From positions 6,698,001 to 6,762,000 of the forward strand of contig NC_087250.1 in the NCBI RefSeq assembly GCF_037042905.1: a stretch of 64,000 nt of DNA. The letters are read 5' to 3'. A program made the position numbers and the translations under genes. Shown here in pieces: positions 28,220-57,586 of the stretch (its first letter is position 1; every line of letters begins with the position of its first letter). The notes under the pieces were generated by a model. It ran no database searches. It saw nothing but the letters and a program-made list of their open reading frames with translations, and was not told the origin of the DNA. The DNA is from Lytechinus pictus. Its lineage: Eukaryota.

Positions 28220-28919
28220 TAATAACTTTCTTAATATTTAACGGATTTCCTCCAAACCTTCACCGATATTTTATTTTATTATTTTGAGGGATATTTTTTA
28301 GAGAAGTAGAGGTAGAGAATGACATAGTCTACACCCTCGCTATGTGGTTTTCACTAAATTTATCATTGTATAAAATGTGTTATATTTTATTTCATGTGAA
28401 TAAGTTATGCTAACATTATATTCATGAAGGGCACACTTTTGCTCTAATTCATTAAATAAAGATCCGAGAAGGCAATTTCTTATGAAAATATTCTGTATCG
28501 TATAGCATTCGTAACATATGTAAACTGAAAACAAATCGGTTACCAAATGGAATTGTATATTTTTTTTCTTATTAGGATATTATTTAATTCTTAGTTTTTG
28601 TTCTTTTCATATAAATTGTTGTCCAACAAATATCGTCCGTTACTTTATTTTGGCCATAATTCAATAGCATCGAATTTAAAAGAATGCTCTCAATTATTTG
28701 TTTGTTTACAGTTTTGTCCAGAGATTCAATCTTCGGTATGATTGTTGTTTGCTAATCTTAGCTATATCAGTATATGTATTACTCAATTTGTTAATACCTT
28801 TAGGATTTTCTCCTTTAAGTTGTGAATAATAATTCCGTTTAAAAAACATTTCGTTATTCAGTTGATTTTATATAATTTTATTATCATATACACACGTTTG
28901 TTTTTACTTTCTTATTCAG

Positions 28920-29440
28920 ATTAGTAATTATGAGCCTGGTAATGACATGAATGATGATATGACTACCAGGTTGTGGAACTGTCTGAGATCCTTCAACCTA
29001 CTGACCCATCTAAACATCTCAGACTCATCTCTCAGTTTCCCTCAATCACCCCCTCAACTACTATCCGTCACAGCGCTATCAGCTGAGAGATTGACGTCAC
29101 AATGCTATGAAGGACTGATCTCATCGCTCCCTGGTTTGGTAAAGATCGATATCACCACTGATAATGCAGATAGAGACATATCCCAGATCACTGCTGGTCT
29201 CAGGCGAACAGGAGGACATAAACTCACACGCATTAACTTTCACGCACCGCCATCATTCCAACCAGAGAAGAGTCGTGTATCGAGAGACACCATGAGAGCA
29301 CTGGGTCTGCTGATCAGACAATATACCAAGAACCTGCAGTGGATTGGTTTGTCTGGAGTTATTGGTTTGAAGGAAGAAGATCTTGCTGAATTCCTTGAGT
29401 CGTCGACATCTTTGGCATCATTGGCTCACCTGCATCTAGA
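28920..29440 (+). CDS. Internal exon (LRR module 1) of an LRR protein, probably NLR-type immune receptor
   Basis: Pyrimidine tract + ttcag acceptor before 28920 and GA|gtgagt donor after 29440. 521 nt, phase 0-2. Translates ISNYEPGNDMNDDMTTRLWNCLRSFNLLTHLNISDSSLSF...SLPGLVKIDI...TKNLQWIGLSGV...SLAHLHL with LxxLxL periodicity. Clearly paralogous to the exons at 43041 and 54340. The NLR assignment is recognition of protein style, not a search result. Confidence 0.85.
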
Positions 29441-30292
29441 GTGAGTTTTTTTTTAACCATATGGGCTTATATCTTGCCGATTTCAACTGTCACTGTACGG
29501 AGTGTCAGAAAACAAAGTAGATGTATAAATGGATATTTGCTTCCGTAATAGTATGGATCCTACTAGGATCCATGATGACAGGTAGGCGACTCTGACTTAT
29601 ATATTTTTTTTAATACACACTAAATTGAATTTAGCAGCCAGTCGTATGTCCTCAAAATATATCGATACCTTTATATTTACCGACATCCCTCGACCCTATC
29701 TATATCGAGAGTGACTGTCACGTGGGAGTGACTTTTACCTACTGCTGCTTGACACCAGATAAGGAATACGTAAAACTGATAATTACAGTTATCAAAATAT
29801 TTAATCAAATCTCTTCAATCTCTGTTGTTTTCTTTTGATTGATTAACGATAATACATGAAAATATACATGGATATTGATAGCAGAATATACCTTAACAAT
29901 AATGGTTAAATCGATCCCCTATCATATCTTCTTGCCTGACATGCCCCACTCGGCCCTGGTGGTCGGTCCAGTTCCTGGCCTCCGCAGCTTGCGATGTCGC
30001 TCGATGCATCCACTGCTTTACTTCCACTCGGCCTCCACAGACAGTGTTGCCCCTTGATGAGTAGCCACCAGATAAGAGAGATGTGGCTTTGACAAATTAG
30101 TGGACGAGATTGAGCCCCCAAACTGAATTACTGAAATTACCCTGCTAATATACCCTACCGTTACTAGGACTAACTATAACATTTTATAAAGTAATTCAAA
30201 GTACCTACATCCCTCGACCCTATTCATATCGGGAGTGACAAAAGCAATTTGAAGTAAAGCAATTATAATAATAGTACTACCATTAGTAGCAT

Positions 30293-31320: not shown

Positions 31321-32202
31321 GTAAGCATGTTGTGACGGTCCTGTACTGAATGAATATCGCCTTGCATTCCAACGATGTTCTTAACCAACTTTTATGAGGC
31401 TGGGTAATATATGGATATAAGAATATATTCCTATATCAAAAATCGACAAAAGAGACGTCGTTAAAAATATAAGAAAATATGTTTGATGGGGACACATTAT
31501 TGCCAAATTGCAATTGAAATGTAACATTTTCAGATTTGCGAAACAAAATCCTTTTAAACGTAATCTTCATTGATTTGTTTTATATTGCACAGGGTTTTTG
31601 TGGTATTTTTTATATTTCTATCAGTGAAAAATATCTGATTAATTTGAAACATGTGTAAAGTTTTGGTGATGGGTCAGTAATGTAAACTTTATTCGAATAT
31701 CTTGGAAACATATTACATTAGTAATTCAATGCACTGTTACCCAGTAGAATATAAATTTGACATTTTTTGGCACATATAATTGACATTTAGATCTGGTGTC
31801 CTGTTTCAGAAAATGTTCTCATGTTTATTTGAAATAGCCGTTAGAATACCTTCGTTACATTAATTGGATATTAAAAAGAAACTTAAGACGATTATATGAG
31901 ATTTTCAGCCCATCACATGATCGAGATTTTGACTGAAACAAGTCAAGCATAAGCAAGGGGATAGGTTGCATCGGTTTTGATTAAAGTTTTTATTTAAATC
32001 GGGTAAATTCACTTAATCATTGACCCTCCTAATTTTAATTATATTAGACAACAAGACTGGTAAAATTGGTAACAAGTTGGTAAAGGAAATAATGTGTTGT
32101 CTCACGATGTGGCAAACTGAAATTTAGACGTTTTGACTACACCTGCTAGTCTTCGTCAGGCAATGAAGTGGACAATAGCTGCGTGCGCCTTTTATACCGT
32201 AA

Positions 32203-32365
32203 TACCTCGGTCACATTTGCTCTACGGCGGCAATACGGCAAGTCAAAAACAGCCGTTTTAATCTTATTTTGTACCAGCTACGTATAGGTGGATTGAATAG
32301 AAAAGAATAAAACGGCTGTTTTCGATTCGCCGTACGGCCACCGTAGAGCAAATGTGACCGAGGTA
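32203..32365. mobile_element. PIF/Harbinger-type MITE
   Basis: TIR TACCTCGGTCACATTTGCTCTACGG / CCGTAGAGCAAATGTGACCGAGGTA with 3-bp TSD TAA. Confidence 0.85.
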
Positions 32366-32494
32366 TAAGCTGCGTGCAGTCAATTCCGGAAAAGCCGCTA
32401 TGATTGGTCGGATCAACCGACCAATCAGAAGCCGCGGACGGTGCGATCGCTGGGCGGCATGCGGAGGTCGTGGAAATCCCGTCGGCTGCCGGCG

Positions 32495-33723
32495 CACAGT
32501 GGGCCAGAATGAGTTGAAAGTGCGCCAAAATTATATTCCGTGTTAGATTTTTATTTTAACATGTTGATTATGGGTAAGTTTGGGCGTAGAATCGACTGAA
32601 CATAATCTAAAGCCGATATGACGTCACCTTGATGCAAAATTTTGATTGGCTACTTAAAACCTATCTGTGAAGACAAATTACCCTAAACAATGTGTAGTAT
32701 ATAAATTTTGTGTTATGTGCTACTTTAAGATTGACCAGAGTGAATGTTGTTTTAGGCTTCTCACATGCCTAAAAAGTGTGTATGAGATCCTGAAAATAAT
32801 TTTATGGCATCAAAATGATCATTAATTAGATTTATAAAAAGAAAAAAAGAAAATCTGAAAAATATTAACCGTGCTTTATGAAGCTGTGTTGACTTGTGTA
32901 AAATACAGTGTATATAGCACCAAGAATGTATCACTATGAGGAGGGTTTTGGGCTGAAATTATTCTACAAGTAAGTTTTAACTCTGGAAGAGTTGTGGGTA
33001 TAGCCCTTATTTGCGTTAGCAACCTTTATTTTGTTTACATTTTGCCCGGAATTCATGTCATTTTCATGGAATGGAAGGGGAATCGTCCTCGCCGTGCAAA
33101 AGCGAACGGCAATGTACACCCATACGGTGCGCTACGATGACTGCGCGGTATAAAAATGACCGTGTTTGAACAGGTTTTGGGGGTGTTGTGTCAAGTAAAA
33201 TCGGCTCTCACATGACAACGGGCAAAAACGGGCAGCTAAATTTGGTATCGACTTAAAGCTTAGACATCAGAAAAAATGATGATAATAGAATTTAGACGGA
33301 AATTCACGGAAATCTTAACGTTTCTAATGTAAATGCAAAAAACATGGATTTTCAGCCTATTTCGAGGAATAATCATACTATAAACCTCCTGAAAGGTGTA
33401 TTTTATCTACTTTGGACCCTTTCACACACAGAAAAGAATATATCAGGATTATGTTGGAGCCATTTCAGATTCCTTTATGAAAAACCTCCTGGAAAATGGC
33501 CTGTTTTTCAACTAGGTTGTCATATACGCGACATTTCGCAAAATGTCACATTTTACGATTTGAGGTTGGAAATTAACAACCTTTATGCAAATTCCAGAAT
33601 GAAATATTTTTGCTGAAGCATTCTTCAAAGTGTTGTCTTTCAGCTGAGCATAACAAAAAATAAAAATATGATATTGCCCATAATGACTTTTGGCGCACTT
33701 TTGTATCGCACCGGACCACTGTG
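32495..33723. mobile_element. Non-autonomous Transib element with RSS-like ends
   Basis: CACAGTGG...CCACTGTG termini. 5-bp GC-rich TSD CGGCG (32490-32494, 33724-33728). Bipartite TIR with internal AAAGTGCGCCAAAA on both ends. No transposase ORF. Confidence 0.85.
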
Positions 33724-34734
33724 CGGCGGTCTCGATGAGTATCGGGCGGTCGTAGGGGGTGCATGCCAGCGAATGGCATGCGCCGAATGGTCGGAAGCCA
33801 TTTATCCCTGTTAACATTGGGATGTAGGCGGATTTGGATAGCCCCTTTAACACGCCGTGTATACCACTGCTTATCCCGCGCTATGCAGCTTACCTCGTTC
33901 CCATTGGGAGGGTGATCTGCATTCCAAGCATGCTCTGCTACTGTCGCCCTATCTATGTGCGCGCCGGTGCTTGACATCACGGCGATGTTCTAGCAATATT
34001 TCGCTAACGGGTTTACCCGTTTCCCCGATATATACCTTGTCACAAGTCACGCAAACTGTAGAGAATATATAAACATATATATGTGCATGTACTGATACAC
34101 TTGAATACCTATATATGAGGCTGGTTACTTACTATTTTGTTGTTGTGTGTATTTATATTAGGCTGATATTTAGTAGCATGTCGCATTATAGACCTATGCA
34201 TATATGTAAATAGGGAGGGGGGAAAATAAAAATAAAAACACATATATATATATATCTGGAGATTCTATTGGAAATTACATGAATATACCATTTTCTTTCT
34301 TCTTCTGTTCTATATTTTTACTCGGTTTTTCAATATACCAAAGATATGGAGTAAAGAGCGCTTATAAATGCTTTCGAAAGACACACTATTAAACCAATTA
34401 ACTAACACCCACATCCGTGAAAGGAAAACACAAGCACGAGTAAACTGTTAAATCTAACAAACGTTGTTTAAACAAAATACTCATAAGATTTTAATACTCC
34501 ACAACGCCTTTCCTCGGTGAATCTATATCTCACACACAACAGTGGCGGATCCAGGGGGGTGGCGCTCAAAATAAAAATAAAAGAAAAGTAAAAGAAAGAA
34601 AAGGCGCTGCTTGAAAAAACAATACACTGATATAATATTAGCAACAGTATAAGGAAAGACTATCCCCCAGCAAAGCACAATCATATCATCTTCCTTATCT
34701 TTTCTTTTAACTACCCTTTTCCCAACAACTTCGC

Positions 34735-38288: not shown

Positions 38289-41200
38289 AGTAGTATAAGA
38301 ACGTCTCCAGCGTCATGACGTAATGTTACGTAGCCCTCATGAATATTAATGAGGGTCATGAATATTAATAAGGGTCGTGAATACATAATGAGGGTGTCTT
38401 GGGCGTCATGACGTCATCCGAGCCCTAGCCTTAACCCTAGCCATAACCCTAACCGTAAGAGTACCAGCAACTGTAACCCTACACGAAACCCTAACCCTAC
38501 CCCAAACCCTGAACACGATGGAAGATGATGCTACTGACGTCAGTCAGTGTCATCATGGACGACATCGATAAGGACATCGTTGGATTGCAACAGGGAAGTG
38601 CAATGGAAGGGGAAGGAACACGACGTGACATGAAATGGGTGGGGGTATAATAATATAATAAAATACAAGGGGAGTTCTATGACATCATACTCGATATAGT
38701 CATCCATGACATCGTTGGATTGCGACAGGGGAGTGTAGAACGTGATGGGACATGAAATGGAGGGGTAAAACAACAGGTTAAAAAACAAGGAAACCTCTAT
38801 AAAGGGTTGAGGAAAACCGTCATTCGTCATTATTGCGACGAAAAAGGAGTAACACTCAAAAACTGGGACCGTCTACATACAACATGTGTAATACAACCGC
38901 AAAACGCCGACGATACCGAATGGTGGCAATAATTTCAGGAACAAGTGGAAAAGGCGGATTTGCTCATGGTCATCGAATATCTGGCCATTATCGAGATTTT
39001 CAAAGACATGAACAAATATCCAAAGACATGGGTGGAAGAATTGATCAAAGAAAATCCTCGGATGAAAGTACGGCAATCGTTGGAGTGCTTGGACCCTTAG
39101 AAGTTGGTCAAATTTTAACCCCACGTAGCGAGAGTGATGTGGATGAGACGAGAGCTGATGGACCCGTACCTCATCACAGAGTATGGGTTGTCTATAGCAT
39201 CATAACTTTATTATTTGTTTTATGAATATGAATTATGAAATATGTAAATTCATAACGTGTATGAAACATGGACATGACATCATAATTATACATAAATTAT
39301 GAATAAATTATGATTAAAGCTATCGTGACATCATACCGATGATGTAGTGGTCCCAAACTTTGCTTGGTTTAGAGCCCTTGGTTGTTTGCTCTCGGTATTA
39401 AGCAGCTATAGGCTTGGATTTGATTCTCAATGTTTACCTCGTTGAGTTTCATGCGAATGCATATATGGGCAGTATCGTCGTAGCCATCAATGATCGATTT
39501 TCTGTATGATAGGACTAGTATGGCGAAAAACAATGGGGGAAGTTGTAAAGAGCGGAGGAAAATGACAATTTATTCGTCAGTTTCGTCATTTGGTTATTTT
39601 CATAATTTTGATAATTTTGTCATTTCGTCATTATTTGTTGTTCTGTCATTTGTCAATCGGTCAATTATTCATTTTGTCGTGCTGCCATTTCGTCATTCCA
39701 TCCTTTAGTGGGAATAGGGTGGGAAAGGGGAGGATCGATCGGCAAGGGAGGAGCCCTGAGGGACAAGTATCCGTCTTTTCATCATTGTACAATTCGTCAT
39801 TTTCATGCCATCGTTTTTTAATTTTTTCTCTCGTTTTGTCATTTTGATAATTTGGCCATTCGGTAATTATTCTACCATTTGTCGATCGGTCAATAATTTA
39901 TTTCTCGTTCAGCCATTCGGTTATTTCGCCGATTTATCATTTTCTTCCTTACGTTATACGCTGTTGTTCTGCTTTTTAACAGTTTCCTAAAGAAATTGTT
40001 CATTGAAAATCAAGAAACATATGCATCATTTTTTTTTTCTACTTTGTTTAATCTGTCTATCATCATTGTACGATTCGTCATTTTAATGTCATCCTGTTTG
40101 TGTTATATCCATGCCATCGTTTTAATGTTTTCTCTCGTTTTGTCATTTTGATAATTGTCGATCAGTCAAATGTTCATTTTCTCCTTCTGTCATTCGGTCA
40201 TTTCGTCGTTTTGTCATTTTCTTCCTTACGTTACGTCGTTGTTTTGTTACTAACAGTTTCCAAAAGAAATGGTTTCATTGAAAATCAATAATAATAATTA
40301 ATAAAGATTTCGGGGGTATAAGAACTTAGGCAGCAATATTGTTTTGGTTGAATCGTTGACATGGGTGTCGATCGTGGGGTGGGGGATATATTTCTCCCAA
40401 TAATATCACATTATAATAATTGTTATGAATCATCTGACAAGTATAGGAGGGAGTAGAAGATGAACAATCATTGTGTATACTTACGATGGCCATCTAGTTT
40501 GTTCTCTTATATCTTTCTTGATTTTCAATGAAACTATTTCTTTTGGAAACTGTTAGTAACAAAACAACGACGTAACGTAAGGAAGAAAATGACAAAACGA
40601 CGAAATGACCGAATGACAGAAGGAGAAAATGAACAATTGACTGATCGACAATTATCAAAATTACGAAACGAGAGAAAAAATAAAAACGATGGCATGGAAA
40701 TAACACAAACATGCAGGATGACATTAAAATGACGAAATGTACAGTGATGATAGACAGATTAAACAAAGTAGAAATTTAAAAAAAATTATGCATATGTTTC
40801 TTGATTTTCAACGAACAATTTCTTTAGGAAACTGTTAAAAAGCGGAACAACAGCGTATAACGTAAGGAAGAAAATGATGAATCGGCGAAATAACCGAATG
40901 GCTGAACGAGAAATAAATTATTGACCGATCGACAAATGGTAGAATAATTACCGAATGGCCGAATTATCAAAATGACAAAACGAGAGAAAAAATTAAAAAA
41001 CGATGGCATGAAAATGACGAATTGTACAATGATGAAAAGACGGATACTTGTCCCTCAGGGCTCCTCCCTTGCCGATCGATCCTCCCCTTTCCCACCCTAT
41101 TCCCACTAAAGGATGGAATGACGAAATGGCACCACGAGAAAATGAATAATTGACCGATTGACAAATGACAGAACAACAAGTAATGACGAAATGACAAAAT

Positions 41201-42549
41201 TATCAAAATTATGAAAATAACCAAATGACGAAACTGACGAATAAATTGTCATTTTCCTCCGCTCTTTACAGCTTCCCCCATTGTTTTTCGACATACTAGT
41301 CCTATCATACAGAAAATCGATCATTGATGGCTACGACGATACTGCCCATATATGCATTCGCATGAAACTCAACGAGGTAAACATTGAGAATAAAATCCAA
41401 GCCTATAGCTGCTTAATACCGAGAGCAAACAACCAAGGGCTCTAAACCAAGCAAAGTTTGGGACCACTACATCATCGGTATGACGTCACGATAGCTTTAA
41501 TCATAATTTATTCATAATTTATGTATAATTATGATGTCATGTCCATGTTTCATACACGTTATGAATTTACATATTTCATAATTCATATTCATAAAACAAA
41601 TAATAAAGTTATGATGCTATAGACAACCCATACTCTGTGATGAGGTACGGGTCCATCAGCTCTCGTCTCATCCACATCACTCTCGCTACGTGGGGTTAAA
41701 ATTTGACCAACTTCTAAGGGTCCAAGCACTCCAACGATTGCCGTACTTTCATCCGAGGATTTTCTTTGATCAATTCTTCCACCCATGTCTTTGGATATTT
41801 GTTCATGTCTTTGAAAATCTCGATAATGGCCAGATATTCGATGACCATGAGCAAGTCCGCCTTTTCCACTTGTTCCTGAAATTCTTGCCACCATTCGGTA
41901 TCGTCGGCGTTTTGCAGTTGTATTACACATGTTGTATGTAGACGGTCCCAGTTTTTGAGTGTTACTCCTTTTTCGTCGCAATAATGACGAATGACGGTTT
42001 TCCTCCACCCTTTATAGAGGTTTCCTTGTTTTTCAACATGTTGTTTTACCCCTCCATTTCATGTCCCATCACGTTCTACACTCCCCTTTCGCAATCCAAC
42101 GACCTCATGGATGACTATATCGAGTATGATGTCATAGAACTCCCCTTGTATTTTATTATATTATTATACCCCCACCCATTTCATGTCACGTCGTGTTCCT
42201 TCCCCTTCCATTGCACTTCCCTGTTGCAATCCAACGATGTCCTTATCGATGTCGTCCATGATGACACTGACTGACGTCAGTAGCATCATCTTCCATCGTG
42301 TTCAGGGTTTGGGGTAGGGTTAGGGTTGCTGGTACATTCAGGGTTAGGGTTTCGTGTAGGGTTACAGTTGCTGGTACTCTTACGGTTAGGGTTATGGCTA
42401 GGGTTAAGGCTAGGGCTCGGATGACGTCATGACGCCCAAGACACCCTCATTATGTATTCACGACCCTCATTAATATTCATGACCCTCATTAATATTCATG
42501 AGGGCTACGTAACATTACGTCATGACGCTGGAGACGTTCTTATACTACT
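38289..42549. mobile_element. Non-autonomous Polinton/Maverick-type foldback element
   Basis: Termini AGTAGTATAAGAACG...CGTTCTTATACTACT. 6-bp TSD ATCATA (38283-38288, 42550-42555). Near-identical inverted arms 38289-40288 and 40518-42549 around a 229-bp spacer. The paralogous intron copy near 53736 has a single ATCATA (empty site). Confidence 0.85.
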
Positions 42550-43040
42550 ATCATATCCTGAGATTTTCAGCCTATTCTATGATTGAGAAGCTCGTTTAAA
42601 TAGACACGATAAGATAACGCAGTAATGTTATGTTTCCGTTTAGATTTTTAAAACTTCAAACCACAACCGTTTTGGGTGCACATTCATTAATAAAATATGT
42701 CAATCAAACGGAATAATGAAATGTCATTTGGGGGATTTACCCAAACTAAATATAACCCTTCCATTTTAAAATCTTATTTATAAAAAACTACGTATATATC
42801 ACTTGGTATTTCTCTAAGATTTTATCATTAAAATGTTTTTTCAAGTGTCTGAATAATAAATAAAATAAATCATCGTGGAATTCTGGGATATTCTCGTTTT
42901 TCTGAAATACCTTTATAATTTATTTCACGAAATGCATGAAAGGTGTGAAGAAAAATCAGAACCCAATATTAGTTCATGCATCAATTATGTTTTTGACACG
43001 GTATTTTTATCCAGCTTTTCGAATTTGTATTTTCCTTCAG

Positions 43041-43342
43041 ATAAACAAATGTCATCTGTCTTCTGAGTTAACTGCTAGAACGTGGTCCTGTCTGAGATCC
43101 TTCACATCACTGAACCATCTCACCATCTCAGACTCATTGCTTAGTTTCTCACTATCACCTCCCGAGCTACCGTCCGTCACAGAGCTAATAGCCTGTAAAC
43201 GGACGTCACAATGCTATAAAGGGTTAATCTCATCACTACCTGGGTTGCGATATATTGAATTCCAAGATGCAGCTAGAGATGACTTTGTTGAATTTGTCGA
43301 GTCTTCAATACGTTTGACATCACTGCAACGACTTGTGATAAA
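43041..43342 (+). CDS. Internal exon (LRR module 2, internally shortened)
   Basis: tttccttcag|ATA AAC AAA TGT... and AA|gtgaga. 302 nt, phase 0-2. INKCHLSSELTARTWSCLRSFTSLNHLTISDSLLSF...SLPGLRYIEFQDAARDDFVEFVESSIRLTSLQRLVI. Paralog of the other two large exons. Confidence 0.82.
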
Positions 43343-43605
43343 GTGAGAGTTCATGCTTTTAGCTCCTTATTTGCCAAGGATGTCCATTCTTACAATAGCC
43401 GTATGCAAAATGCTTTTCCTGGTTAGGTGCTTAAAGCGCTACTATATCACCACGCTGGATATAAATTGTAGGCTTATTGTAATATTCTGAACTAATAAAA
43501 ACGTTTTAGGTAATCAGTAATGAGATAATAATACGTGGTAACTTACACTTAGTGCAGTTTCCAAAACAATACTTAATTCCGTTTTCCTGCCTAGCTAAGC
43601 TTACT

Positions 43606-52999: not shown

Positions 53000-54339
53000 A
53001 TGGCGATGATGAAACTGATGTTGAAGCACAATGAATAACAATAGTCATTGTAATGAGTTGAAATGTCCGTGAAGACGATGTTGATGATGATTAACAGTCA
53101 ATTTCAGCAATCCATGGGTTGAAGAGTGTTCATTAAAACTGGTTGATGATCTCTATGAGAACTGAGAATTCCTCTCTCAAAATTACTGCAAACAGTTCAT
53201 TGATGGCGGGCAAATAATTCCACAGAAGATAAATAATCCAGGTGGAAATAAAGTCTGCTCTGACATAAAGTCTGGCATGATCGAAACTTTAAGTTCTGAT
53301 CTGATATGATATTATCCGATCTGATATGATAATGTCCTTTAAGAAACTGCCAGCTTATATATACAAACTTCAACTATTCTGGAAGTTTATAGTATTCACT
53401 ATATATTAAGAACATTCTTCTTCTTTCTGGAGCAATCAAATTCTAAAACATTCTTGAATGACCTCAGTGAAATTAACAATTGTAAACAAAATAGCTAATT
53501 CTATCGTCCATTTTCCACTGTGGACAGACTCTATTGTTTACATTCTCTATTGTTTGCAAATTCCAGAAATAACCAAGATTATTCAAAGATTACTCATGTC
53601 TAACAAAGCTGTACTATAGAGCCTTCTGGAACATTTTTAATCATTCCATGCTATGAATATCCTTAAAGGGGAAAATAACTAAATAAACTTTACATATTTA
53701 GTAATTGGATATTGGAAAGCAACTTATAATATCATTATACATCATATCCTATAATTTTCAGCCCATCCCATTCTTGAGAATGTATTTTATATAGACAAGA
53801 CAATAATAAACAGGGGTGCATCCGTTTGCATTACAGTTTGATGTAAAATGGGTAAATCTTTTTCAATAAAACAAATTTTCTTCTTGAAACTTCACACCAC
53901 GAGCATTTTGGGGCACATATATTGATAAGATATCGTAATCAATTGGAACAGTGACATTCGATTTTCTTTTTTGGGGGTAGCAAAACAAGAGATAGCCTTG
54001 GGGTTTTTTCAGTAATATATATATATATGGGTGTGTTCGTGTGTGAATATATTTCATATAATTCGGATTTTGTTCAGAATTTCTCCTCTGAAATAATGTT
54101 TCTTTAAGAGTATGAATATTCAATATGAAACATCACCTTTGATTTATTTATTATCGCGGTTTTTTTTTTTTGCGGGGGGGGGGGGTCGGCGGGGGTTGGC
54201 TGAAATACATTTATTTTTTTTTTTACGAAATGCATTAAAAGTGTGAAGAATAAATCTGATCCCAAAATTATTACATGAACCAAATAGGTTTTACACAACA
54301 TAATTGTTATCCATCTTTGCTATTAATATTTTCCTTCAG

Positions 54340-54839
54340 ATAACCGCATGTCGTCTGTCTTCCAAGATGACTTCTAGAATGTGGCCATGTCTTACATCTT
54401 TCAACTCACTGAAGCATCTTACCATCTCAGACTCATCTCTCAGTTTCTCTTCACCTCCTGAGCTACCATCGGTCACAAAACTATCAGCAAAGAGTGTGAC
54501 GTCACATTGCTATGAAGGTCTGATTTCATCGCTCCCTGGTTTGGAAGATATCGATATCATTATGGATGATGCAGAGGGAGACATGACCCATATCACCGCT
54601 GGTCTTCGTCAGACGGGAGGGCAGAATCTCAAACATATATATGTTTATGGTCCGTCGTCACTTTCACCAGAGAGGAGCCGTGTATCGATAGAGACAATGA
54701 GAGGACTGGGTCTGTCCATCAAAGAACATACACAGAACCTGCAGGAGCTCCATCTGCGATGTGTAGATTGTACAAACGAGGATGCCTTAGTTTACCTAAT
54801 GGAGTGCTGCAGACGTGTGAAGACGATGCAATACGTTAG
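54340..54839 (+). CDS. Internal exon (LRR module 3)
   Basis: ttccttcag|ATA ACC GCA TGT... and AG|gtaagt. 500 nt, phase 0-2. ITACRLSSKMTSRMWPCLTSFNSLKHLTISDSSLSF...TQNLQELHLRCVDCTNEDALVYLMECCRRVKTMQYV. Confidence 0.85.
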
Positions 54840-57586
54840 GTAAGTTCTTGCTTATGAAAACATATTTTGTTGATACAATTTAAATATCAATCCCATGCAG
54901 TGTTTCAATTTCTACAGTGTTCATATTACATGTAAACTATTTCCTGTAAATATTCGGATACATTTAGAGAACAAACGGTACCATTCTATTTTAAACAAGG
55001 ATAGTGTCATCGGGTAGGCTACTCTTAGAATTGCCATTTGAAATGTCAAGTCATCAAATATATTTCAGTGCATACAATTTGGTGTTAAATAGCTTTACCC
55101 TCTCATTAAATGTTCCTTTTATGTAATAGCACCAGCATGCAAATTTGAATTTTACTAGTTTAATCATAACTTTTTTATAAGCTCCAGTAGCCTGCTATCA
55201 ATAGTTGTTCATACCTAACTCGCAGTCAGTGTGAAATATTCGATTTGTACAATTACCACCGGAAGCAATTACCCCCCCCCCCCCCCCGAGGACAATAACC
55301 CCCTAGACAAAGGGAGTGCACAGAATCATACGTCGGCCGTACGTTTGAAGTAAGAAGTACTCAAGGCATTCTCGATTATATTGGAATCAAACGAACGCTC
55401 TAAGAAAGCTGTAAAAGTGAGCTCCATCCATTGGCAGCTTGCGCTATGCGCTCGCATTATTTGATTTGCCAAATTATACAACAAACTATTTAATACCCCC
55501 CCCCCCCCTTTATGACATTTTACCAAAAATTTCGTCTCACCATTTGTGCTCGCATTTTTGTTATAGATATATCAACTCACAAATCCTATTAAGGATTACA
55601 AAGTGCTTGAAATATCCAGTTTTCAGGCTTCAGTGTCAACACATTTCACTCACTCATTAGGCCTAATACATTAACTCTAACCCTGCCAGCCCGAATACCC
55701 CTCTACTGCCAGGGATATTCGAGGGAGTCCTAATTTGGCAGAAAATCGAGCAGCGACTGATTTAAAAACGGTCATAATTCTTTACCCGTACGTTGTATAA
55801 TGAAACCTTCTACACATGAAATGATGCATGGTTCATGGGCTTTATGATCGTGTTATTATCTTTCGTATTCGCGTTTGGAAAAATGGAGAAAAGATGTAAT
55901 ATTTTACATCGTTTTTTCAATAAGTAAAACCTAGAAAATTATGATTTCATGAACATTTCAAAGAGTAAATAACCTGAGGAATTGTAAAGATACCAAGAAA
56001 TTAAGAAGATAAAATGAACGTTCAATGTTTACCGTTTAAAATGACGTATCTATGAAATTGAACAAACAGAAATAACGAAAAATAATGCTCTTTTGAATGA
56101 AATACTATTTTGCTATTCAAGTTTTTTCCTCAGAAGTACGAGATAGTATAAATAGATGAGTGGCAAGAAGCCAAAAAGTGGTTTATTTCTTGACTTTAAT
56201 CCCCCCGGCTGGATCAAAGCAAAATCATACATCAAATTAAAGGAAATTTTCTGAATTTTTCGGAATTGGGCATTAAAAATGACGTAATATGTAGCATCAC
56301 CATGGAAGCCAGCCTTGATTAAGCCACGCCCATTTTAAATACTTATTGAATATTTATCGTGAATATTGATTTTTTACTCATAAATTTAAATTATCAGGAA
56401 TGTTTTCTTATTTTTAAAGGATAGTTCCACTATATATTGTAAGAAGAATTACTGAATAACAACTGAATTTATGAATATTTTCTCTGAAATTGTTGCCTAG
56501 CAACATAACTTTCCTTAGCAACCATTTAGCTCCTTAAGTAAACCACTTATTTTTCCATTTCAAACCTAACTTTTAACTTTTTAACTAGGTTAGATTAAAC
56601 CTAATAAGTTACACCAATGAAATTCTATAAAGTATTATTGAAAAATAATAAAAAGAACCGAAAACCCCCACTTTAATTATTGCAAACCTAAAATAAATTT
56701 GATAAGCTCTACTAAACATACCCCTTTCACATCGTACAAATCGCCATATTATTGTTCATTTTGACTACATTGACAGTCACATACTCTATACTATTTTGTG
56801 GTGAAAAAAGTGGATTGAGTTAATAATACCTGATCAATTAACATGCAGTATCTTGTCTTCAATAGAACAACAACAAAATTACCATTTCACCTTACCCATG
56901 GATACCAATTCATTGCCTAGCAACGACTATTTTCCATAGCAACGACTATGATAACACTCTCCTCCCTGGACAAATCTGTGTAAAAATAGTTCATTATGAG
57001 CAATAATACTCACAAAATTATCATATAGATGCCTACAACCTCATTTTCAATAATCATTCAACAAACTGACTATTTTTTAGCTTCCATGGAGACAAATGTG
57101 TTGCCTAGTAACAATATTCCCTAGCAACAGCTATGTTACCACTCGTCATCTCGGTCAAATGTGCTGAGGAAGTTGTGCCTTAGAGTAAACATATTGAGAA
57201 AATTAACATATGATAGTTTGTTAAACAGTATTCAGGAATTTACCATCATCTACTGACACAATTCCATTGCCTAGCAACACTATTTACCTTAGCAACGATG
57301 TATTTTTCCCTTAAACAATCTTGATGAAAATAATCCACTTTTAAGTGTACAGTACCATTTGTAAAGGGATGGTCTAGGCTGTAAATATTTCTATCTAAAT
57401 AGATAGAGTAAAATTCACAAAGCTAAATGCTGAAAATATCATCAAAATCGGATAACAAATAACAAAGTTATTGAATTTTAAAGTTTATCAATATAGTGTG
57501 AAAACCTTTATATCCACATTGTCATGAATATTCATTAGGTGGGCTGATGATGTCACATCCCCACTTTCCTTTTTCTTAGTTTATTA

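Follow-up and report, generated by a model that had tools for sequence, protein, structure and literature searches.

A non-autonomous Transib element with RSS-like, symmetrically spaced ends, probably in an intron of a NACHT/NLR-like gene of the sea urchin Lytechinus pictus

The 64,000-nt stretch of Lytechinus pictus DNA analysed here (the window) carries an element both ends of which open with CACAGTG, the heptamer of the V(D)J RSS. The locus raises the question of whether these ends form an asymmetric 12/23 pair, as had been proposed in a preliminary description of this DNA, and whether the element belongs with a classical Transib transposase or with a RAG-like one. The features on which the answer depends are the following.

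32490..32494 (no strand): left target-site duplication CGGCG, 5 bp, read from the window
32495..33723 (+ strand): non-autonomous Transib element of 1229 bp, of a family named family A, from genome matches and Pfam and frame scans
33724..33728 (no strand): right target-site duplication CGGCG, read from the window
32495..32530 (+ strand): left 36-bp TIR, with CACAGTGGGCC at 32495-32505, spacer AGAATGAGTTG at 32506-32516 and AAAGTGCGCCAAAA at 32517-32530
33688..33723 (- strand): right 36-bp TIR, with block 1 at 33713-33723, the spacer at 33702-33712 and AAAGTGCGCCAAAA at 33688-33701
33696..33704 (- strand): '12-spaced nonamer' ACAAAAGTG, composed of spacer ACA and the first six bases of the common inner block

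The analysis indicated that positions 32495-33723 very probably hold a non-autonomous Transib DNA transposon, an old and inert copy with 11/11-symmetric ends, probably intronic. The element is an ordinary one, as non-autonomous Transibs of this kind were already described from sea urchins in 2005. As previously noted for this DNA, both ends open with CACAGTG (32495-32501, and as the reverse complement CACTGTG on the + strand at 33717-33723) and a 5-bp duplication, CGGCG, lies at 32490-32494 and 33724-33728. Frame scans showed that the longest open frame in the interior of the element is at most 106 aa, and the three frames lying wholly within the element gave no Pfam family above cut-off. The earlier assignment to a non-autonomous Transib-type element therefore holds, given the 5-bp CGNCG duplication, the CACAGTG terminus, the inner A-rich block and the lack of coding capacity.

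The 1229-bp element was used to search its own genome (811.7 Mb, 368 contigs). The search returned 539 first-look candidates and 42 scored matches, 40 of which extended to query base 1228 or 1229 of 1229; identity was 91-100%. From 30 returned loci, 31 family A copies were cut out, a sample biased to relatives of the window copy. Identical 5-bp flanks were found in 29 of the 31 copies. Because 40/42 matches run to the query end and 29/31 copies have matching duplications, the borders of the window element are those of the family. CGNCG accounted for 24 of the 29 duplications and the remaining five were one base off (hand tally), in agreement with the preference of Transib for GC-rich targets. 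The heptamer CACAGTG was present at 30/31 left ends and 29/31 right ends. Divergence of the copies from the sample consensus was 2.0-4.6% in this sample skewed to the relatives of the window copy, and the window copy itself was 4.6% off that consensus. Family A is young to middle-aged, with several hundred copies in the genome.

Some of the copies have unusual surroundings. One locus (L020, G000:C6:2951286-2953730) has two family A copies in head-to-tail order, with exactly one 5-bp CGACG between them and CGACG also on both outer sides; either the two form a tandem dimer, or the second copy inserted into the duplicated target of the first. Other copies (L016/L017, G000:C29:301707-302942 and 317416-318651; L061/L062, G000:C11) recur with identical flanks or the same nested LINE at distances of 16 kb and hundreds of kb, suggesting segmental duplications that carried transposon copies along.

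The family A consensus reads CACAGTGGGCC AGAATGAGTTG AAAGTGCGCCAAAA at the left end and CACAGTGGGCC GGGGCGAAACA AAAGTGCGCCAAAA at the right end. The two ends agree at positions 1-11 and 23-36 and differ only in the 11-nt spacer. The heptamer and an A-rich block had been described as conserved between the ends; this is correct, but the conservation is wider, covering the outermost 11 bases and, at equal distance on both ends, an inner block of 14 bases. CCAAAA begins 23 nt past the heptamer on both ends, inside AAAGTGCGCCAAAA, which fits the ~38-bp terminal repeat of Transib. At its right end the window copy deviates from the consensus at end positions 9, 14 and 19. The position-9 change falls inside the terminal block, giving GTCC where family A has GGCC, and because of the three deviations the right-end 12-nt 'spacer' quoted in the preliminary description is copy-specific.

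A pattern of the bases common to both ends matched the window twice and did not match any of 100 shuffled versions, so the ends are not a product of chance. The exact block-11N-block pattern gave 353 + 356 matches in the genome compared to none in the reversed control, and 453 + 452 when up to two mismatches were allowed. Reading of 100 places listed among the exact matches showed two families, family A of ~1.2 kb and family B of ~2.0 kb, the latter with the spacers AGAATGAACCC and AGGAGAGAGCA. Similarity between A and B is restricted to bases 1-36 of each end, implying that the two blocks are under constraint while the spacer is free. Within the spacers, the left-type ones of A and B are alike at 7/11 bases and the right-type ones have the final CA in common; both families carry xCA before AAAGTG at one end (ACAAAAGTG, GCAAAAGTG) and lack it at the opposite end. 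As far as the sequences go, the distinct left and right spacers could have been inherited from a single master whose ends differed slightly, or they could mark a genuine difference between left and right. At one place (G000:C2:29472461-29475685) only 8 bp separate a family B copy from a family A copy, which fits reuse of CGNCG-rich spots.

The closest known counterpart is TransibN1_SP of Strongylocentrotus purpuratus. Transib elements were characterized by Kapitonov and Jurka in 2005 (PMC1131882) by 5-bp duplications, GC-rich targets and a 38-bp end consisting of a heptamer, a variable ~23-bp spacer and an A-rich nonamer-like block that resembles an RSS23; the same account describes Transib1_SP of the purple sea urchin (4132 bp, duplication CGGCG) and, likewise, TransibN1_SP. 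The consensus of the latter (PMC1131882 Fig. S4g) reads CACAGTGGGCC AGGGAGGAACC AAAGTGCGCCAAAA at the left and right ends alike; the two ends form a perfect inverted repeat, and the duplications are CGNCG. Comparison was confined to the ends, which are what the published supplement shows. Both conserved blocks are identical to those of family A and lie at the same 11-nt distance; the two also share 5-bp CGNCG duplications, a non-coding interior and a size of about 0.6-1.2 kb. Unlike family A, whose spacers differ between ends, TransibN1_SP has another 11-nt spacer that is the same at both ends. That spacer was found in none of the 12 matches in the present genome having A at end position 16. 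Family A is thus another family of the kind described in 2005, sea urchin Transibs with RSS-like ends and CGNCG duplications. Compared to a V(D)J RSS, family A has the perfect CACAGTG and an A-rich element at 23 nt, and its 5-bp GC-rich duplication is also a feature ascribed to RAG-mediated transposition in PMC1131882. Unlike a V(D)J RSS, it has no true nonamer, only CCAAAA being fixed as part of the longer AAAGTGCGCCAAAA; it has four extra fixed bases beside the heptamer and no 12/23 length difference, and it is a multi-copy mobile element that does not flank gene segments.

To look for an autonomous partner, the whole genome was searched with the RAG1 Pfam model, which is a poor probe for Transib transposases. 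The search gave 22 candidates, all RAG1L-like, and with this poor probe no Transib transposase gene was found. The open frames among them are of B type, and one matched an amphioxus RAG1L chain at E 1e-146 compared to only 4e-6 for HzTransib; the other candidates are fragments of the same RAG1L kind. L033 (G000:C4:15674907-15676589) and L031/L032 (G000:C182 and C233) carry RAG1L-B-like open frames, 624 and 612 aa long, each ending in a CCHC-type knuckle and with an exon-like frame upstream. The C182 and C233 copies have identical match scores and are probably one locus assembled twice. At G000:C9:18143020-18173215 at least seven weak or degenerate matches to the RAG1 model lie a few kb apart, a run suggestive of a RAG1L pseudogene fragment that was duplicated in tandem. 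The RAG2 model found no match in the genome and, equally, none in any control genome. When a RAG1L frame was compared by phmmer with 1.84 billion representatives, 560 matches were obtained; the search yielded no Transib query, as the three most divergent matches checked among the best 150 of 560 resembled amphioxus RAG1L and not HzTransib.

Searches that started from the ends pointed back to the same two families. Long end pairs were considered as autonomous elements, and those opened proved to be copies of A or B lengthened by nested insertions of LINE, Penelope-like or Tc1-like elements. End patterns designed to exclude A and B gave 12 and 8 matches, all of them A or B variants, and only families A and B were present among the 100 matches listed for the run allowing up to two mismatches. 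No autonomous element with family ends was found by these searches, with 100 of about 700-900 end matches listed per search and a RAG1-model probe weak for Transib. Autonomous Transibs have been reported at one or few copies (as described in PMC4411706), and Martin 2023 (PMC10629977) mentions intact Transibs in many echinoderms.

The 12/23 reading of the ends was built on observations that proved accurate in themselves. The left end is CACAGTG followed by 23 nt and CCAAAATTA, the latter at 32525-32533; read inward, the right end is CACAGTG, GTCCGGTGCGAT and ACAAAAGTG, and it also has CCAAAAGTC at 23-nt spacing (in the order ACAAAAGTG, CG, CCAAAAGTC). A check suggested at that time, whether the family consensus holds ACAAAA at 12 nt, showed that it is retained on one end, in 31/31 copies. 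A working 12/23 pair, in which the right end acts through the 12-spaced ACAAAAGTG, the left end through the 23-spaced CCAAAA, and the transposase requires both kinds, just as RAG requires a 12RSS and a 23RSS, would account for the presence of ACAAAAGTG at exactly 12 nt in 31/31 family A right ends and its absence from left ends. Matches to the RSS nonamer ACAAAAACC at 12-nt spacing are 6/9 (right) and 3/9 (left) in family A, and family B shows a weaker form of the same difference, 5/9 (right) versus 4/9 (left). With fixed conserved blocks and random spacers, the chance of 6/9 at exactly 12 nt is 0.015-0.023 per end. Furthermore, all convergent pairs among the 100 places listed (18 of family A and 10 of family B, by hand count and hand reading) join a left-type to a right-type end, and insect Transib families with RSS12-like and RSS23-like ends have been published (PMC1131882, PMC8355894). 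In those families, namely Transib5, Transib2_AG and TransibN1-3_AG as presented in PMC1131882 Fig. 4C and PMC8355894, an ACAAAA-type run lies ~12 nt from the heptamer on one end, as in family A, and the A-rich block of the other end lies at ~23 nt (TransibN3_AG, PMC1131882 Fig. S4c). However, unlike these insect elements, the 12-like end of family A retains the full inner block in register, without a length difference. The right end too has the 23-spaced CCAAAA in the same register as the left, and CCAAAA occurs at this spacing on every end compared. ACAAAAGTG occupies right-end positions 20-28, of which 23-28 (AAAGTG) belong to the inner block of every end, so that six of its nine 'nonamer' bases are common to both ends and only ACA is right-specific; A at nonamer positions 4-6 is found at 12-nt spacing on every end. 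When the 12±1 tolerance of real RSS12s is applied, 23-33% of random-spacer elements attain 6/9 on one end or both, and a match on one end only (6/9 right, 3/9 left) does not go beyond this expectation. TransibN1_SP, with identical blocks, scores 5/9 on both ends; it is perfectly symmetric and yet has many copies with duplications. The left/right pairing within each family merely reflects copying from one master. Tao 2022 (PMC9435367) sorts Transib ends into symmetric and asymmetric ones according to how long a spacer separates their two conserved elements. By this measure, which follows that paper and PMC10629977, the blocks are 11/11 apart in family A, family B and TransibN1_SP. Because the block spacing is 11/11 on both ends, there is no length asymmetry. 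These results do not support the claim of 12/23 ends, and a working 12/23 pair is judged highly improbable. The RSS12 likeness of the right end is, on the evidence of the aligned ends, a by-product of three spacer bases abutting the common inner block; the 12-spaced match carries no weight as evidence of asymmetry, despite its presence in the consensus.

It was also considered whether the family is mobilized or excised by the RAG1L of this genome (with RAG2L) and not by a classical Transib transposase. The open frames described above (612 and 624 aa), one of them with strong similarity to an amphioxus RAG1L chain, and the failure of the RAG1-model search to detect a Transib transposase are in line with this idea, as are reports that sea urchin RAG1L together with vertebrate RAG2 can act on RSS substrates (PMC4840297) and a proposal that RAG excises Transib-like elements (PMC8355894). 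Family A also shares a CAC-type heptamer and a 5-bp duplication with RAGL-B elements of the ProtoRAG type. Nevertheless, no family end was found within 1.5 kb of the match at any of 17 RAG1-model loci, and sea urchin RAGL genes are stated in PMC9885083 to be without terminal repeats. According to the definition given in PMC10629977, RAGL-B has an A-rich TR2 straight after the heptamer, whereas family A has GGCC and a free spacer in its place. Ends with the same two blocks were classed as Transib by their describers (PMC1131882), and the RAG2 model found nothing, here as in every control genome. Mobilization or excision by RAG1L is accordingly given very little credence, and a RAG-like partner for family A is unlikely. 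Since the end blocks match those of TransibN1_SP, the RAGL TR2 is absent and urchin RAGL genes are reported without terminal repeats, we infer that the partner would be a classical Transib transposase.

The surroundings of the Transib copy were examined by protein matches and tblastn, which revealed three exon-like modules.

28866..29441 (+ strand): upstream exon-like module of a NACHT/NLR-like repeat protein, a 192-aa open frame, from protein matches and tblastn
42906..43343 (+ strand): next downstream exon-like module of the same kind, from tblastn
54304..54840 (+ strand): third exon-like module of the same kind, from tblastn

The three modules are copies of a ~180-aa unit, 11-14 kb apart, that is repeated in sea urchin proteins. 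The module at 28866-29441 matched 56 proteins at E ≤ 0.001, the best with 76-84% identity; many of these carry NACHT (PF05729), some are named NLRC5-like, and the closest named proteins are from Lytechinus. A Pfam scan of the host modules gave nothing above cut-off, and no NACHT-coding part was found in the window. The first two modules are separated by 13.5 kb, and because the Transib copy falls between them it is probably in an intron of a NACHT/NLR-like gene. The location inside an immune-receptor-like gene that had been suggested earlier is thus supported by similarity, which places the element among putative exons of NACHT/NLR-like proteins.

The search for an empty site covered both the genome and public sequencing runs. 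The 345 bp to the left of the insertion contain a high-copy palindromic repeat, and the 125 bp adjoining the insertion had no other scored copy in the genome, so no paralogous empty site was found there. Each public run contained at most 0.15 of the sampled words, and no RNA run was among those listed. Four DNA runs gave only short repeat-derived contigs that left the unique flanks uncovered, and no joint from 32494 to 33724 was present among the joints listed.

Two further repeats were noticed near the element. Just to its left, a ~170-bp palindromic repeat of MITE kind (32199-32369) matched both strands of the genome at 80-92% identity, with 2234 first-look candidates, and the ends of the public-run contigs cluster at 32199/32200 and 32366/32368. 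A near-perfect large palindrome occupies 38289-42549 and stops just upstream of the module at 42906. Its arms (38423-40036 and 40778-42391, 1614 nt) are 97% complementary and its outer arms (38289-38498 and 42340-42549) 100%, and it contains mirrored 140-aa open frames; a foldback element, an inverted duplication and an assembly artefact are the explanations considered for it.

A course of events may be proposed for the Transib copy. A Transib transposase supplied in trans would bind the two blocks that are alike on both ends, as papers on Transib transposases suggest. It would cut at the CAC border by way of a nick and a hairpin, a step modelled on what those papers describe. Insertion with a 5-bp stagger into a CGNCG target would then give the 5-bp duplication. 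The window copy would have landed in non-coding DNA between exon-like modules of the NACHT/NLR-like gene, and its right end would later have mutated within the terminal block.

As it stands, the window element matters little, RSS-like ends being a known hallmark of the Transib group; some insect families were already stated in PMC1131882 to have RSS12-like and RSS23-like ends, and the 'Transib seed' idea of Yakovenko 2021 (PMC8355894) was built on the insect 12/23 examples. More far-reaching readings are that a deuterostome Transib lineage has functionally distinct RSS12-like and RSS23-like ends, a thought that arises because A and B each always have one end with xCAAAAGTG 12 nt from the heptamer, or that the several hundred ends with the heptamer are natural substrates cut or excised by intact RAG1L, in keeping with the 'guardian of the genome' idea. 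The odds are heavily against this pair of readings; if true, either would mean that an invertebrate deuterostome has a system of RSS-like substrates alongside its RAG-like genes. The present case also carries a caution, namely that a 12-spaced 'nonamer' in a Transib end can result when a few bases of the spacer adjoin a conserved inner block, so that a claim of 12/23 asymmetry should be based on how far apart the conserved blocks lie in a set of related families. For the Transibs of sea urchins, the comparison of family A, family B and TransibN1_SP maps what the transposase lineage most likely reads, which is end positions 1-11 and 23-36.
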